Shown: positions 5,201-37,957 of the stretch, one piece after another | How the letters are laid out: every line of letters starts with the position of its first letter | Numbering within the stretch: the stretch's first letter is position 1 | Assembly (NCBI GenBank): GCA_951406725.2 | Contig: OX597819.1 | Coordinates: 63,302,001-63,366,000 of the forward strand | Origin: Octopus vulgaris | Lineage: Eukaryota | DNA length: 64,000 nucleotides | Direction: 5' to 3' | Notes under the pieces: model-generated | Databases searched by the model: none | Seen by the model: the letters and a program-made list of their open reading frames with translations, nothing else | What the model was told of the DNA's origin: nothing | Program-made: the position numbers and the translations under genes

Positions 5201-5229
<29 letters not shown>

Positions 5230-5298
5230 CTTCTTCTTCTTCTTCTTCTTCTTCTTCTTCTTCTTCTTCTTCTTCTTCTTCTTCTTCTTCTTCTTCTT
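5201..5298. repeat. (TTC)n microsatellite
   Basis: Pure TTC run. Confidence 0.95.
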
Positions 5299-5548
5299 CC
5301 TCTCTGCCAAGAATTCACGACGTCCTTGGACCCATAGTAAGCAAGTGAGGCAGAGACAGGCAGAAACAAGGAAAATGCCCCTTGTACTTGAATACTATGC
5401 AAATATTCTTTTAAAAAACTTTTCTTTTAATTCTTCCAAAATTTGTTTTCCATTCTTACAGTTGAAAAAGTCTCAATAACTGAAACCGGTACTGAAATGT
5501 TTTTTATAGAATTATTTTAGCATTTTCTACCTTGACTTTTACTTTTTT

Positions 5549-5585
<37 letters not shown>

Positions 5586-5589
<4 letters not shown>

Positions 5590-6854
5590 GTCATCCCATT
5601 AGTTCTGTCCGATTTTACCATTTTAAAAACTGAATGAAGTGTAATAGTATTTTAGAATGTCTACTGGAATTAAAATTTATTTTTATGCATTTGTGTAAAC
5701 TTAAACTATTGAAATATTATTTTCTAGAGTAATACAATTAAAATTTCTTTTTTCAATTAAAACCCTTTCTAACATGGAAGTATCCAAAGAGAATTTCGGG
5801 CACATAATGCTTTATGAGTACAAAAAAAGAAACACTGGAACCAAAGCGATTCGAAACATACTCAGTTTATGGGAAAGAATGGTTGAATGAGAGATCTTGC
5901 AGAAGATAGTTTGCAAAATTCAGAAGTGGAGATTTCAGCCTTGGACGTCCAGTTGAGTTTGATGATAAGCCCCCTAAGGCATTACTTGGAGAAAATCCTG
6001 CATTATCAGTTGAAGAATTGGCAATAAAGCTAAGTTCAAACCATACAACTGTTCATCGTCATCTACAATAACTTGGAAAGGTTTCTAAACATGGAAAATG
6101 GGTGCCTCATGAATTGTCCGAAAGCAACCGCAAATCCCTAATTGACATCTGCTCTTCTCTCCATTCTCACGAACTCATTTCACCCTTTTGGATAGACTTG
6201 TAACTGCTGACGAAAAATGGATCTCCTATCGAAATGTTAAACGTCGTAAACACTGGCTTGGTAAAAGGGAAAAAGCTCAACCACAACCGAGAAGGGAACT
6301 TCATGGAAAAAAGATTCTTTTCTCTATCTGGTGGGATTGCAAAGGAGAAATTCACTTTGAATTGTTACCACCTAATGCAATAATCAATGCTCTTATCTAG
6401 TGTCAGCAATAAGAGCGTTTGAACCAAGCTTTGAAGAAAAAAGCCCCACTTTAGTGAATCGAAATGGAATGATGTTTCATCAGGACAACGCACGACCCCA
6501 CACTGCAAAGGTCATATCACAGAAGATTGAAGAGCTTAGTTGGGAAAAATCCCTCATCCACGTTCTTCTCCCGACCTTGCTCTTTCAGATTACCATGTGT
6601 TTCGTAGTTTACAGAATCATTTGGGAGACATAACTTTCGCAAGCCAGGAGGAGGTCGAAACTGAGATTTCAGAGTTCTTCGATTTGAAAGCAAAATAGTT
6701 TTACACTGATGGGATTAAACCGCTTGTAAATAGATGGAAGGATGTCATAGATAATCAGGGAAAGTACATTGATGATTAAATCTCAATTAAATATAACATT
6801 GGATCACTTGTTTTCTTTATTCAAAATTCGGACAGAATTTATAGAATGACCTGA
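5586..6854 (+). mobile_element. Full-length but inactivated mariner (DD34D) transposon
   Basis: ~30-bp TIRs (TCCGGTCATCCCATTAGTTCTGTCCGATTTT / AAAATTCGGACAGAATTTATAGAATGACCTGA) inside (TA)n; ~1.27 kb. Confidence 0.92.
5774..6779 (+). pseudogene. Mariner transposase pseudogene
   Basis: WVPHEL, TADEKWI, HQDNARPH and SPDLA.SDYH motifs; several stops and frameshifts. Confidence 0.9.
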
Positions 6855-11908: not shown

Positions 11909-12898
11909 TCTACCTTCCTACATACCTACAACCCTACCTTTCCACCTACTTGCCTGTCTCTCTCTCTCTCTATCAGTTATCTGCCTCTGTCTCTCGGGAT
12001 GCCTATCTGTCCGTCCGTCCGTCCGTCCGTCTGTCTGTCTGTCTGTTTCTCTCTCTCTCTCTCTCTCTCTTTCTTTCTATCTGTGCCTATCTGTCTGTCC
12101 TTCTGTCTGCTTGCCTCTCGGTCTGTCTTTTTGTCTATCTATCTATCTATCTACCTTTATTGCTTTCTTTCTATCTTTATTCCTCTCAACATTCCTTTTC
12201 CCATCTGTTTTACATTCCCGTTTTTTTAACATTCTCACTCTCTCCCCCATTCAAATATTATCATCTTTCTCTTTCTTAGACATTTCCCCCTTTCTTTTTG
12301 TAATTCTGCCACAGATTTCTGCTATTTCTCTTCCTTACTTGCACATTTTTTGCTCTCTCCCTCTCTGCCTCTCTCCCTGTATCTGTCTCTCACTCCCTTT
12401 CACTCCCCCATTCTCTCTTCTTTCCCTTCCCATTCTTCTACTTTCGGATTCTAGAAATAGATCTTTATCACTAGCGTTTTTCAAAGCAATCTTGCAAAAT
12501 CTCCATCTGTGTGGTTCAACGATTAGCGATACCGACATTAGATTACAGCTTCGTCGGTCCACAGGGACTCGCGTTACATTTATTAATCACGTCATCACCA
12601 ATGGTTAATATTAATAAGCTATTTTGTCACGAAAACAAAAACAAGTTAATTGATGTTTAGACTGAAGCAGTTTTTATTTTCTATCTGGATATCTATATAA
12701 CCTGCAGACAAACACACTTATTTAATGCATGGATAATATATTTGCATATAATATATTACATAAATGCACAACAATACGTACATAAGCATTTCCAAATTGA
12801 CGAAGGCTACCGAAACGCATATTATAGGGACTTTAAGCATGGGAACTATAACTGTACCAGTATAATTTCGTTTAGTGCAAAGCTACTTAACTCATATT

Positions 12899-13116
12899 AC
12901 TCTTTTCTCTTTTAATCTTTTACTTGTTTCAGTCATTTGACTGTGGCCATACTAGAGCACCTACTTTAGTTGAGCAAATGGACCACAGGACTTATTCTTT
13001 GTAAGCTTAGTACTTATTCTATCGGTCTCTTTTGCCGAACCGCTAATTTACGGGGGCGTAAGCACACCAGCATCGGTTGTCAAGCGATGTTGGAGGGGGG
13101 ACAAACACAGACACAC

Positions 13117-13159
<43 letters not shown>

Positions 13160-13354
13160 CACACACACAATATATATATATACATATATACGACGGGCTT
13201 CTTTCAGTTCCCGTCAACCAAATCCACTCACAAGGCTTTGGTCGGCCCGAGGCTATAGTTGAAGACATATGCCCAAAGCGCCACGCAGTGGGACTGAACC
13301 TGGAAACTTGTAGTTCTTAAGCAAGCTACTTACCACACATCCACTCCTGTGCCT
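12899..13354 (-). mobile_element. SINE family A, full length, with internal (CA)n/(TA)n tract
   Basis: tRNA-like head, CORE-like segment, central microsatellite, 3' CAGTCAAATGACTG hairpin and AAAAGA-type tail. Confidence 0.9.
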
Positions 13355-14088: not shown

Positions 14089-14550
14089 ACTGTGAGAGGA
14101 TGGTTAAGTAATAATTAATTTAGATAGGATACAAAACAGAGAGTGAGGTGGAGGAAAGAAAATAGATGTGAGATATGTAGAGATATTGAATTTATTGATC
14201 CAATCTTTTAGGCAGAACGGTATATATGTAAAATTCCAATACCTTATGAGAAAAATCCAACAGAATTTAAAATTATTCATTCCAAGTATACAGTTTATTC
14301 ATGATGTAAGATTCCAATACCTTATGAGTAAGATCCAACGGTATATATATATACATACATAAAGATAAGCATATAAAAAGTGGGCCATGGGAAAAGTCAT
14401 TTAAATTAAAGGGTCGGGAGCCAATGCAAGGAACCACTGTAAAAACGTTGGAAATCACTGATCTAAATAAGTTAGTGAAAGTATTGCGTATATTTTTTTC
14501 TTTCTACATTCCCCTAACATAATGCCCACCACCTCACAAAAATTCCATCA

Positions 14551-14842
14551 TTCACTTGCACTTCCAGCAATTTAACCTACCGCATTCTCTGCTTCCTCTG
14601 TCATTCTTTGTATATTGGTTAAACAGGCCCACACTTGGTCGAACGGTTTGCCGGACATCTCCGGGACATCAAACTCCGAAATGATATCCCGGTCACGCAC
14701 CAATACCGCTCGACCGGTCCTTCGTTTCAACGTGCGTCTGTGTTCGGACTGGCGTTGCACAGAGTCCACCCAAATTCCCGCCCTTGTCGAGAGGAGGAAT
14801 TTATTTTTTGTTTCCATTTCTCAATCCCGCAAGGTTTCAATT
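14551..14842 (+). pseudogene. Penelope-like (Neptune-type) GIY-YIG endonuclease remnant, followed by a CA-rich tail to ~15230
   Basis: FTCTSSNLTYRILCFLCHSLYIG*TGPHLVERFAGHLRDI...PV..REEEFIF..PQGFN. Confidence 0.8.
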
Positions 14843-19327: not shown

Positions 19328-19543
19328 ACTCTTTTACTTGTTTCATTCATTTGACTGCGGCCATGCTGGAGCACCGCCTTTAGTTGACCAAATCGACTCG
19401 AGGACTTATTATTTGTAAGCCTAGTACTTATTCTATCAGTCTATTTTGCGGAACCACTATGTTACGGGGATGTAAACACACCAGCATCGGTTGTAAAGCG
19501 ATGTTGGGAGGACAAGCACAGACACAAAAACGTATAGACACAT

Positions 19544-19639
<96 letters not shown>

Positions 19640-19811
19640 ATATATACGACGGTATTCTTTCAGTTTCCGTCTACTAAATTCAATCCATTCACAAGGCTTT
19701 GGTTGGACCGAAGCTATAGTAGAAGACAGTTGCTCAAGGTGCCACGGTGAGGGACTGAACCCAGAACCATGTGATTGGTAAGGAAGCTACTTACCACAGA
19801 GCCACTCCTGT
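19328..19811 (-). mobile_element. SINE family A, full length
   Basis: Colinear with 12899-13354 and 42754-43168. Confidence 0.9.
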
Positions 19812-27309: not shown

Positions 27310-27436
27310 TTTATTTTATAGAAGGAGCTTCTACAGGACTAGAACTGTTTCATTCAAAAGAAATCATCAGGAAGCTTCCTGATGATTTCTTTTGAATGAA
27401 ACAGTTCTAGTCCTGTAGAAGCTCCTTCTATAAAAT

Positions 27437-35023: not shown

Positions 35024-35800
35024 CATATCTTGTCTGCTCTTGCAGAATCTCCCCATGACAGTTTCTCAGTAGCCTTTCCAGAGGTTAAGCTAATGGCTGC
35101 TACCGTTGGCGACACGACCAGGTCCTGGGGCCGGTTGCGGATGTGATATCAACAAATATTCAGCGCAAGAAAGAATGTATCATTTTTTGAGAGCCAGAGA
35201 AATGTTCACTTCATGGGAAATCCAACGACTAACTTGAATGCTTTCATCCGCTTTAGACTAGCGGATGAGAGTGGATCTCGCGGAACAGTTAAAGTTCCAA
35301 GACTGTATCATACCAACAACAATCCGCTCGGTAATAGTGAACTCAAATTTAAAAAAAAACGGGTGATCATATGGAAACTGACTGTGCCTTGGTAGGAACA
35401 ATTAACGTCATCTTATGACAGGAAGCTAGCCAAATTCCGAGAGCTGGTGGAGCGGTGTATGACTCGTGGGTGACAGGCATGTTGCGAGCCAATAGAAGTG
35501 GGTTGTCGAGATTTTGGGGTGGGGTGTTTATTCTGCAAAAGTCTGACTGATCTTGGAGTTACTAGTGCAACAATAAGAGGGCTATAAATTTCATTACCGA
35601 AGTGAAAGAGAAGGCCACTTGAAGGCTTGGAATAAAGAGGGCAGACCAGTTGCCTGCAGCTATTTTGATGCAAACCGGGCTTGATCATCACGGACTGGTT
35701 TACCTGGGCGATGGGATCTATTGTTGAAAGCCCCGAAAACCTATTAAACCTATTGAGACTATAGAAACCTTACTGACGACGCATTCCAGAACATTCCTAA
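35024..35800 (+). mobile_element. HERO-like RLE non-LTR retrotransposon 3' fragment
   Basis: RWRHDQVL, VIIW(K)LTVPW and KLAKFRELVERC..G*.ACCEPIEVGCR motifs, followed by a 3'UTR. Confidence 0.75.
35713..35787 (+). ncRNA. Degenerate non-circularly permuted hammerhead-like motif in the HERO-like 3'UTR
   Basis: GGGA TC TATTGT tgaaa GCCCC GAAA ACC..linker..ACCTTA CTGACGA C GC; strand order is cleavage strand, GAAA strand, CUGANGA strand. Confidence 0.45.
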
Positions 35801-36180
35801 CGTGCATCTGTAAACCTAACCATAGTGATTGCTATTTGATACTTTTAGTAATTCTCAGCGTCCAATATATTGGACTCATTTTACTTTTTTTACTCTTTTA
35901 CTTGTTTCAGACATTTGACTAAGGCTATGCTGGAGCACCGATTTTAGTCTAGCTAATCGACCCCAGGACTTATATTTTGTAATCCTGGTACTTATTCTAT
36001 CGGTCTCTTTTTGGGGGACAAACACAGACACACACACGTATATATATATATATATATATATATTTATTTGTATTGCTTTTACGTCCTGTTCTTGTCTAAT
36101 TTTTTTTCTTTCCTTGTTTTTACCCCTCTGCAAAGGAATTGTATTTAATTCTTTTGCAGGAAGGATTGTTTCGGTGGGTC

Positions 36181-36241
36181 GTGTTCTGTCCTTACCTTCG
36201 AAACACATATGGAGTCGAACCAGGGACAGATGATGAAGGGG
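36181..36241 (+). ncRNA. Permuted (pseudoknotted) hammerhead candidate, copy 1
   Basis: GTGT T CTGTCCTT A CCTTC GAAA CAC [15 nt] AGGGACAG (a)TGATGA A GGGG; helix I 8 bp, helix III 4 bp; C3 mutated. Confidence 0.6.
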
Positions 36242-36365
36242 AATATTCCTTGTATTGTTTGTCTTGTACTCTGTTTTTTTTGTTGTTAAATAAAAGTCCG
36301 TTTCCATGTTTGTTTTCATGCTTTCGTTTCTCGTTGAGTTCTACGTCTATTTGTGGTGTCCTGTA

Positions 36366-36402
<37 letters not shown>

Positions 36403-37011
36403 GTATATATACACGTAGATGTAGGTACGTACATATATGTATGTATGTATGCATATATTTTATTTATTAAATTATTGTATGACTGAGCGCCCTCACGTCG
36501 TTTCGTTTCGTTCCTTTCCTTTTCTCCAAGTAAGTTTTTATTTATAATTATGACGCGAAACTCTGTAACCCTTTGCTTGACCTTTCCTTCCTTCCTGTCT
36601 GTCTTCCTCTTTGCCTGTCTCTCTCCTTCTTAGTTTTCACCCTTTCTGGTTTCCTTTCCTCTCTATCTCTCTCTCTCACTCCTCCGCATCTCTCTCACTG
36701 CTGAGTCCACCAACCTCCTTCCACTCGCTGCCTTCTACAAGCCAAAATGGCTTTTTCCTTGCGCTCTGAATTTTTCCATCGTCTAGGCTTAAAAAAAGGC
36801 CCTCAATGTTGGTTTCCTTGTCCTGTTTTTATTCTTTATGTGTACTGTATTTTTAATATTGTATTTTATTTTGTATTTGGATTTTATTTGTTTTTTTATT
36901 TGTATTGCTTTTACGTCCTGTTCTTGTCTCATTTCTTTTCTTTCCTTGTTTTTACCCCTCTGCAAAGGAATTTTATTTAATTCTTTCGCAGGAAGACTGG
37001 TTCGGCGGGTC

Positions 37012-37072
37012 GTGTTCTGTACTTACCTTCGAAACACATATGGAGTCGAACCAGGGACAGCTGACGAAGGGG
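37012..37072 (+). ncRNA. Permuted (pseudoknotted) hammerhead candidate, copy 2
   Basis: Same layout with intact CTGACGA and one mismatch in helix I. Confidence 0.6.
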
Positions 37073-37957
37073 AATATTCCTTGTATTGTTTGTCTTTTAC
37101 TCTGTTTTTTCGTTGTTAAAAAAAATTCCGTTTCCATGTTTGTTTTTATGTTTTCGTTTTTCGTTGAGTTCTACGTCTATTTGTGGTGTCCTGTACTCAT
37201 ATATATATATATATATATATGCATGTATATATACACGTAGATGTAGGTACGTACATATATGTATGTATGTATGCATATATTTTATTTATTCAATTATATA
37301 TATGTATACAACGGGCTTCTTTCAGTTTCCGTTTATCAAAACCACTCACAAGGCTTTGGGTAGCCCGAGGCTATAGTAGAAGACACTTGCCCAAGGTGTC
37401 ACACAGAGGGACTAAACCCGGAACCATGTGGTTGGTAAGCAAGCTACTTACCACACATGAAGATTTTTTTCTTAATATATAGTAATCTCATTATACTGAA
37501 CTGAAACATGAGTTTCATGCATCAGCAACGATATTTGACCTGATTTGGCCTAAATGCTTACTTCAGTAATCAAACTGGCATGGATCTTATCCAATCTCAG
37601 AAATATAGATCTTAACTACTAACCTTCTAGGGTCGCCTAGAACTCGACCCGTTCTCCTCAATAAAGGTTATACATTGATTCTCATTCGGGACTAATAGGA
37701 TGAATATTATGACAGTATTAGCAGCCGCGTAACGCACAAGATATTCATTTAATATTATTTTGAGTGATGACAAAAATCAAATCCGGTTTTTAAATCACCA
37801 AATCCCAGGAGTATATTATCTTACACTTATCCATTAGTTGAAAGCATCACCGAGCAAGAACGCACTTTCTTTTTGTTACATGCTGCGTCCACTGCATTTA
37901 ATTGGGCTGGCTGATGTCTTAGATTTTTATTTCCAGCCTTTGTAAATGTTCAAATGT

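Follow-up and report, generated by a model that had tools for sequence, protein, structure and literature searches.

A non-coding, Penelope-associated element family of Octopus vulgaris with a predicted split-core hammerhead ribozyme

The 64,000-nt stretch of Octopus vulgaris DNA analyzed here (the window; contig OX597819.1, positions 63,302,001 to 63,366,000) contains one copy of a non-coding family that was, in our judgment, probably copied into (TA)n tracts by Penelope-like enzymes, and each unit of which carries a predicted hammerhead ribozyme that is non-circularly permuted and has a split core. The window element works like a retrozyme or a non-autonomous Penelope-like element, with a ribozyme layout that is undescribed in the literature searched (subscription papers and most supplement alignments lay outside that search).

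RESULTS

The locus and its host SINE

The element lies in the (TA)n tract of a SINE (Table 1), as the first-pass annotation of this DNA had proposed: its left and right flanks match a SINE that is split in two here and that has its (CA)n(TA)n tract uninterrupted in other copies within the window (e.g., 12890-13340 and 19328-19798). The annotated architecture was likewise borne out, in that two direct repeats, which align at 93.0% identity, surround a non-coding core of ~420 nt that is 72% pyrimidine. The longest ATG-initiated frame of the element is 93 aa, and we found no credible ORF in it. A target-site duplication was unreadable within the (TA)n at this element, and a tRNA search found none.

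Both predicted ribozymes at this locus are damaged. The one in repeat 1 has A at C3 (36230) and has lost part of its clamp helix; in the one in repeat 2, stem I is mismatched at 37021 and a G beside stem II is missing. The locus is an old, damaged fossil copy of 1.5 units. Cleavage after 36185 and 37016 had been proposed to release an 831-nt monomer; both positions fit hammerhead numbering, they are 831 nt apart, and the 5' ends of copies stop there, but release of the monomer from this particular locus is not expected, because repeat 1 has lost C3. The GGAATATTCC palindrome noted downstream of the motif is present at the locus but not conserved, its middle letters differing among subfamilies; a role for it was not upheld.

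Several other features were seen in the window. A stretch resembling a Pol III B box (37042-37052, minus strand) is probably a by-product of the clamp strand. The dead fragment at ~35040-35500 is separate from the ribozyme element and resembles the restriction-like endonuclease (RLE) end of a non-LTR element. A decayed GIY-YIG fragment of a Penelope-like element lies at 14503-14820, and at 27370-27430 a short palindrome stands beside a type I hammerhead-like core, a similar motif being present in locus L127.

Table 1. Features of the element and of its surroundings in the window
Feature	Positions	Strand	Remarks
Left half of host SINE	35861..36062		ends in (TA)n target tract 36039-36062
Repeat 1	36063..36475	+	5'-truncated tail of preceding unit, pLTR-like
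Ribozyme 1, helix X 5' strand	36123..36127	+	pairs with 36237-36241
Ribozyme 1, hairpin Y	36128..36159	+	predicted between A9 and G10.1; compensatory changes
Ribozyme 1, stem II upstream strand	36160..36164	+	G10.1 = 36160; pairs with 36195-36199
Ribozyme 1, clamp helix ('I' stem of Eckert et al.) 5' strand	36166..36175	+	pairs with 36214-36223; decayed here
Ribozyme 1, block S	36180..36191	+	stem III strand, U16.1, H17 = 36185, predicted cut, stem I strand
Unit between predicted cut sites	36186..37016	+	831 nt
Ribozyme 1, block G	36195..36206	+	stem II strand, GAAA (G12 = 36200), stem III strand
Ribozyme 1, block C	36224..36241	+	stem I strand, CUGANGA (C3 -> A, 36230), helix X 3' strand
CT-rich non-coding core	36476..36894	+	alternative family 3' end B at ~36546
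Repeat 2	36895..37297	+	terminates at 3' end A (commonest in window family), adjoining (TA)n
Predicted ribozyme 2	36955..37072	+	all core bases present
Ribozyme 2, helices X, Y and II	X 36955-59 / 37068-72; Y 36960-91; stem II strand 36992-95	+	
Ribozyme 2, clamp	36997-37006 / 37045-54	+	
Ribozyme 2, key positions	H17 37016; G12 37031; C3 37061	+	
Right half of host SINE	37298..37470		flank match

Copy number and anatomy of the family

The block C pattern has at least 3,520 exact matches in the 2.8-Gb genome and a 33-mer from the repeat has 480, the control being 0 in each case. The genome-wide search for partial tandems that the first-pass annotation had suggested thus returned thousands of copies, some of them reaching a second unit. 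The family is also present in assembled contigs under four organism labels, plus four runs only guessed to be RNA; such contigs attest to its presence alone, not to RNA ends, strand or joins. A comparison of the family with viral contigs gave no match, and a motif taken from the loose end of one contig had no match in the genome.

Family copies have fixed 3' ends and variable 5' truncation. Among 74 3'-end anchors in 70 loci, which were chosen irrespective of the 5' part, 40 end at site A (the equivalent of 37297) and 26 at site B, ~70 nt further on; 4 continue into a second unit and 4 end otherwise. Most of the 3' ends displayed adjoin (TA)n. Six tandem copies have periods of 594-831 nt, and head-to-head pairs of two truncated copies occur at 19 of the 179 family loci. 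Fixed 3' ends, 5' truncation, partial tandems, an inverted partner and a microsatellite target together reproduce the anatomy of Penelope-like elements (PMC8557442), and the family has the non-coding head-to-tail units, with one ribozyme each, of a metazoan non-LTR retrozyme. The non-coding unit and the family anatomy support the initial reading of the element as a non-autonomous, ribozyme-bearing, partial-tandem retroelement.

It is extremely improbable that we are dealing with a local duplication or with the terminal repeat of a coding element, as might be thought from there being only two repeats at this locus and from three family copies that abut ORF fragments. A local duplication, which had been named as a possible refutation, is excluded by the thousands of dispersed copies; against a terminal repeat, copies that extend upstream run on into the same non-coding core, and all three joins to ORFs place the partner head-to-head on the opposite strand, each with a different element.

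Core, block order and covariation

Along the RNA, the blocks of the predicted ribozyme follow each other in the order cut site, GAAA, CUGANGA (S-G-C), and a 3-nt linker joins stem I to block G in ribozyme 1. What had been called an HHR-like motif is a predicted hammerhead with all core bases; it is not the standard hammerhead of retrozymes, and the hairpin noted upstream of it, which we found in both repeats (hairpin Y, Table 1), is predicted to belong inside the ribozyme. The core (CUGANGA, GAAA and U16.1-H17) is intact in 104 of 139 copies, in which all four bases occur at N7 (77 T, 54 A, 7 G and 1 C), whereas G never occurs at H17 (80 T, 56 C, 2 A and one gap). A13 is missing or altered in 20 of the 139, mostly in the oldest subfamily.

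The three stems (I-III) are in register with the core; I and III covary within the family, and II between families only. The covariation of stem I (C-G 95 / U-A 33; second pair, U-A 102 / C-G 30) and of the 5-pair stem III (U-A 105 / C-G 31) is counted over copies and reflects a few subfamily events. The 10-bp clamp helix has two-sided changes at several pairs, and hairpin Y covaries too. On a tree whose pair list still used the plain-SGC wiring of stem II (see below), stem changes that keep pairing made up 30 of 42 on branches with at least 3 leaves, the figure for tips being 135 of 294 (p=0.003). Double changes on one and the same branch numbered 4 versus 0.34 expected, one of the 4 breaking its pair. 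Core changes were not significantly rarer on shared than on tip branches (1/77 versus 21/421, p=0.23). Mutual information was confounded by subfamily structure, many of the top pairs being subfamily markers rather than base pairs.

Rfam gave no ribozyme among the 150 window matches listed, the top ones being (TA)n artefacts, and no hammerhead family among 26 matches of the element up to E=10. Type I, II and III hammerheads were ruled out by the block order, S-G-C instead of cyclic S-C-G, and by the lack of an Rfam match; inspection by eye likewise failed to fit the motif to an HDV-like, twister or pistol layout. Types I-III share the cyclic order opposite to S-G-C and differ from each other by rotation; type SGC (HRIMA-1), in the available text of Eckert et al. 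2023 (PMC10085705), is shown to cleave and is placed in metatranscriptomes only, in no known organism's genome. The S, G, C order, the 3-nt linker between stems I and II and the covarying clamp helix of the window family are type-SGC features. In the fold that we favor, however, block C is not unbroken, as it is in that type, where the stem II strand follows CUGANGA within 1-2 nt.

Naiads and two further families

Naiads are Penelope-like elements with which the window family shares (TA)n targets, partial tandems, inverted 5'-truncated partners and an optional 3' tail, as far as the available text of Craig et al. 2021 describes them (PMC8557442); unlike the Naiads of that text, the window family has no ORF, and its tail is ~70 nt as against 30-40. 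A motif from the published Naiad_Ovul end has 218 exact copies in the genome. The Naiad 3' UTR in the genome carries the same layout, and at locus L345 the motif follows a Naiad-type RT end. The window element and the local Naiad 3' end have no DNA similarity beyond (TA)n; what they share is the predicted fold.

The available text of Craig et al. has Naiads without canonical hammerheads and flags eight 'HHR_half_core' cases (PMC8557442). By eye, we read the split-core layout in at least 4 of 45 Naiad consensus ends of the supplement (last ~350 nt), namely, Naiad_Obim, Naiad_Ovul, Naiad_Anas and the entry preceding Naiad_Anas (PMC8557442). In the same supplement, the 3' end of the nematode entry Naiad-3_Nbra looks by eye like a plain type-CSG hammerhead with a clamp, and Naiad-2_Nbra, Naiad_Hcon and Naiad_Hpol resemble it; type CSG is described from two metagenomic sequences only in the available text of Eckert et al. 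(PMC10085705).

In a sister family (L353-L376), helix X, the clamp and stems I-III are spelled with other letters. Another, young family (L386:1407-2615, L377-L396, L427-L496) is sequence-unrelated to the window family; it has 1,383 exact matches, ~99% identity and an 840-880-nt period with up to 4 units, and it has the S-G-C order and a stem II formed with the upstream strand, as in the window family.

Stem II and the proposed split core

CCUUC pairs fully with GAAGG directly 3' of hairpin Y, and AGGGG after CUGANGA pairs with CCCCU immediately 5' of hairpin Y. We collected 158 copies; the upstream part was present in 99, and a recognizable cut block in 81. In these 81 copies, stem II makes 4.85 Watson-Crick pairs when formed with the upstream strand and 1.86 when formed downstream, and 61 of the 81 contain the complete set of four upstream helices, as against 0 of 1,620 shuffles. 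Only 2 of 9 Naiad copies passed the full four-helix test. With a descriptor scan we obtained 59 matches in the 1.33 Mb of fetched DNA versus 0 in reversed DNA; 47 were of the window family, 5 were Naiads and 7 were others (4 diverged window-family copies, 2 of the sister family and 1 of an unrelated family).

Within the window family, no double change was seen in helix X or stem II, and strict measures were not significant (40/500 and 380/500 shuffles; 58 rows thinned from 115). Between families, the core-anchored counts (87 window, 8 sister, 6 Naiad and 5 young-family distinct copies) used search patterns that fix some stem letters and hence compare families rather than measure conservation; they give upstream stem II as GC-AU-AU-GC-GC in the window family, GC-AU-GC-CG-AU-AU in the sister family, GC-AU-CG-AU-CG in Naiads and GC-GC-CG-UA-GC-GU in the young family. 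These counts replaced a MAFFT alignment of the window and sister families in which the stem II strand was shifted. Helix X reads AU-GC-GC-GC-GC in the window family, AU-GC-GC-GC-UA-CG in the sister family and UA-GC-GC in Naiads; for the young family, neither helix X nor hairpin Y could be made out.

We initially adopted the reading as a plain type-SGC hammerhead and dropped it after the Naiad comparison. Stem II would then pair CCUUC with the G-run that follows CUGANGA and one extra A, the upstream strand would pair with the UCCUU tail, and the hairpin would lie outside the ribozyme. Of the cells, 95-97% allow the required pairs, and four pairs of this kind are kept in the sister family; SGC-2 in the available text of Eckert et al., too, combines a 3-nt linker with an additional base behind CUGAUGA (PMC10085705). 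We nevertheless consider this wiring improbable: the downstream pairing (4 pairs, 2 of them G-U), which stays possible in the window and sister families, fails in the Naiad and young families; only 2 of its 4 pairs are Watson-Crick, its duplex is at 0.0 versus -4.6 kcal/mol, and no double change was seen in it, whereas helix X covaries between the window and sister families and plain folding selects helices X and Y.

With stem II formed by the upstream strand, the A9-G10.1 link is opened by helices X and Y, and we infer that the modeled RNA is a circular permutation of the C-S-G class, opened between A9 and G10.1. From 5' to 3', the fold would run through a helix X strand, hairpin Y, a stem II strand, a clamp strand and the cut site with stems III and I, and then through the 3-nt linker, the stem II strand with GAAA and stem III, the other clamp strand, stem I with CUGANGA and the closing helix X strand.

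A probable footprint of cleavage in copy ends

Copies were anchored 38 nt downstream of the predicted cut, with no upstream sequence demanded. In the window family, 44 of 135 anchors have their 5' end at -1..+28 versus 2 at -31..-2 (p=3e-11), and 81 (60%) read through the predicted cut with an intact junction. In the young family, 20 of 81 anchors end at -1..+9 versus 3 at -36..-2, and in two of these 3 it is (TA)n that directly meets the site; read-through in this family may be overcounted because of overlapping loci. Two Naiad copies 602 nt apart also begin at the predicted cut site.

In the two sequence-unrelated families, the cliff of 5' ends falls at H17/1.1, in a loop and not at a helix edge. 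The simplest reading of the copy ends would be an RT running off RNA cut at H17, since an RT stalling at structure should do so at the edges of helices, and there is no reason to expect that unrelated families would have a promoter at the same structural bond. The motif could alternatively be a non-catalytic signal for binding of the RT or another protein, with the cliff marking a transcription start or an RT stall, as some subfamily members spread despite a damaged GAAA and as Naiads multiply without canonical hammerheads according to the available text of Craig et al. (PMC8557442). This we regard as quite unlikely, given that the conservation pattern (a free N7, an H17 that is never G) is that of a hammerhead, that the cliff lies inside the loop in both families, and that the Naiad pair starts there as well. 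Judging from the copy ends, the predicted ribozyme of the window family likely did cut.

Mobilization and partner enzyme

Three head-to-head joins connect window-family copies with truncated coding elements: with a truncated Naiad at L403 (1 of 30 Naiad RT loci), with a C-terminal GIY-YIG element at L117 (1 of 30 GIY-YIG loci), and with a different C-terminal GIY-YIG element at L246 (1 of the 179 family loci). The close Naiad RT matches are all decayed (longest frame, 292 aa); intact 781-aa Penelope-like elements with a C-terminal endonuclease are common in the genome. A hammerhead scan of the pLTRs of the intact 781-aa element gave nothing convincing.

The first-pass annotation had offered Penelope or RLE machinery for mobilization. 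The Penelope-type alternative is well supported by the 3' ends, the (TA)n targets and the head-to-head joins in these genomic copies, and the work of Li, Clavereau and Pollet 2026, in its available text, is in line with it (10.64898/2026.07.22.740005); the RLE alternative is not supported, the 35040-35500 fragment being a separate dead element.

In the mechanism that we propose, a tandem transcript would cut itself after U16.1-H17, and a Penelope-type RT/GIY-YIG protein would prime inside the unit at one of two AT-rich sites, ~280 or ~350 nt past the cut. On cut linear RNA, the RT would run off at the cut and leave short copies; a template that is uncut, or that has been re-ligated and is then likely circular, would be read through and leave partial tandems like the window copy. 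Priming on both strands of the target DNA would give head-to-head joins, and the fold would likely have been inherited from Naiad 3' ends.

Some further loci have features of their own. An intact young Penelope-like element with a 781-aa RT + GIY-YIG frame has 456-bp pLTRs at L131:430-885 and 5217-5672, and the 3' end of this pLTR shows, by eye only, a minimal hammerhead-like motif with U3-A8 nearby. At L117:2580-2770 (minus strand) lies another CT-rich repeat with a type I hammerhead-like motif, and a similar sequence adjoins the 5' end of a copy in L046.

Is there an RNA circle?

The 3' ends inside the unit, together with the 60% of copies that cross the cut, imply that re-ligated or uncut templates were used. 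The window family itself gives no positive sign of a circle: there are at most two same-strand ribozymes per locus, no 3-unit array was found among the first 100 match positions, and the paired repeats of the six tandem copies rank only 2nd to 19th among 172 as each other's relatives, a result that is uninformative on the template.

Young-family arrays comprise 2-4 units, which differ within an array by 0-2 substitutions (8 pairs) versus a mean of 11.9 (minimum, 0) between arrays, and in 2 of 5 arrays a private substitution is common to the units. These sequences fit one template copied round and would thus support a circle, though a homogeneous tandem source or local duplication could also yield near-identical units.

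A tentative alternative, with something under a one-in-three claim on our belief, keeps the same ribozyme and mobilization and dispenses with the circle: cleavage would do no more than trim a linear, pLTR-type transcript at its 5' end, with uncut read-through RNA or template jumps as the source of partial tandems. The limit of two same-strand ribozymes, paired repeats that are not mutually closest copies, and 3' ends lying inside the unit and not at the cut speak for it. Against it, the junction at the cut is intact in the 81 copies that cross it, even though cutting evidently affected many templates, and near-identical units form arrays of 3-4 in the young family, whose stem II is wired in the same way.

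DISCUSSION

With the SGC and CSG types, as given in the available text of Eckert et al. (PMC10085705), the window ribozyme has in common the cyclic C-S-G order, the short stem I-II linker and the core bases; as in SGC-2 of that text, its clamp connects stems I and II on their block-C sides and lies one base past the stem II strand. In the predicted window ribozyme, unlike those types, block C is broken between A9 and G10.1 by helices X and Y, with the RNA ends entering there, and the clamp strand is attached to block S. At most 1-2 nt are allowed between A9 and G10.1 in the same text (PMC10085705). The available texts of PMC13725137, PMC7936874, PMC10162972 and PMC3088659 contain extra helices, pseudoknots or 1-2-nt insertions, not the split-core layout.

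Metazoan non-LTR retrozymes, in the available texts of Cervera and de la Pena 2020 (PMC7229834) and Li et al. 2026 (10.64898/2026.07.22.740005), resemble the window family in being non-coding, low in GC and head-to-tail with one hammerhead per unit, and a proposed dependence on Penelope-like elements is common to both. In these texts, however, they have type I hammerheads and 150-450-bp units in arrays from dimers to large multimers, and their circles have been demonstrated; the window family has neither a type I hammerhead nor a 150-450-bp monomer, but a permuted predicted ribozyme and a unit of ~830 nt in arrays of 1-1.6 units. Known elements with weak-helix-III hammerheads, like the window element, carry a ribozyme in both flanking repeats, and cleavage plus ligation has been proposed to generate their longer-than-unit copies; their hammerheads act as dimers and have one unpaired base before stem II, whereas stem III here has 5 pairs and two helices occupy that place.

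If the model is right, a split core in thousands of animal genomic copies would widen the fold that a hammerhead tolerates, and standard hammerhead searches would overlook a large class. The classification of non-circularly permuted hammerheads presumes, in the available text, that the CUGANGA block is unbreakable (PMC10085705). The cliff of 5' ends would be a genomic record of cleavage in vivo, and the young family offers ready constructs for assays and for studying how animal retrozymes are copied. The broader proposition, to which we would give even odds, is that the split-core hammerhead is the missing ribozyme of Naiads and cuts in vivo, and that several protein-free families carrying it, one of them very young, spread as ~0.85-kb circles via more than one Penelope-like clade; the split core would offer a testable answer to the apparent lack of ribozymes in Naiads.
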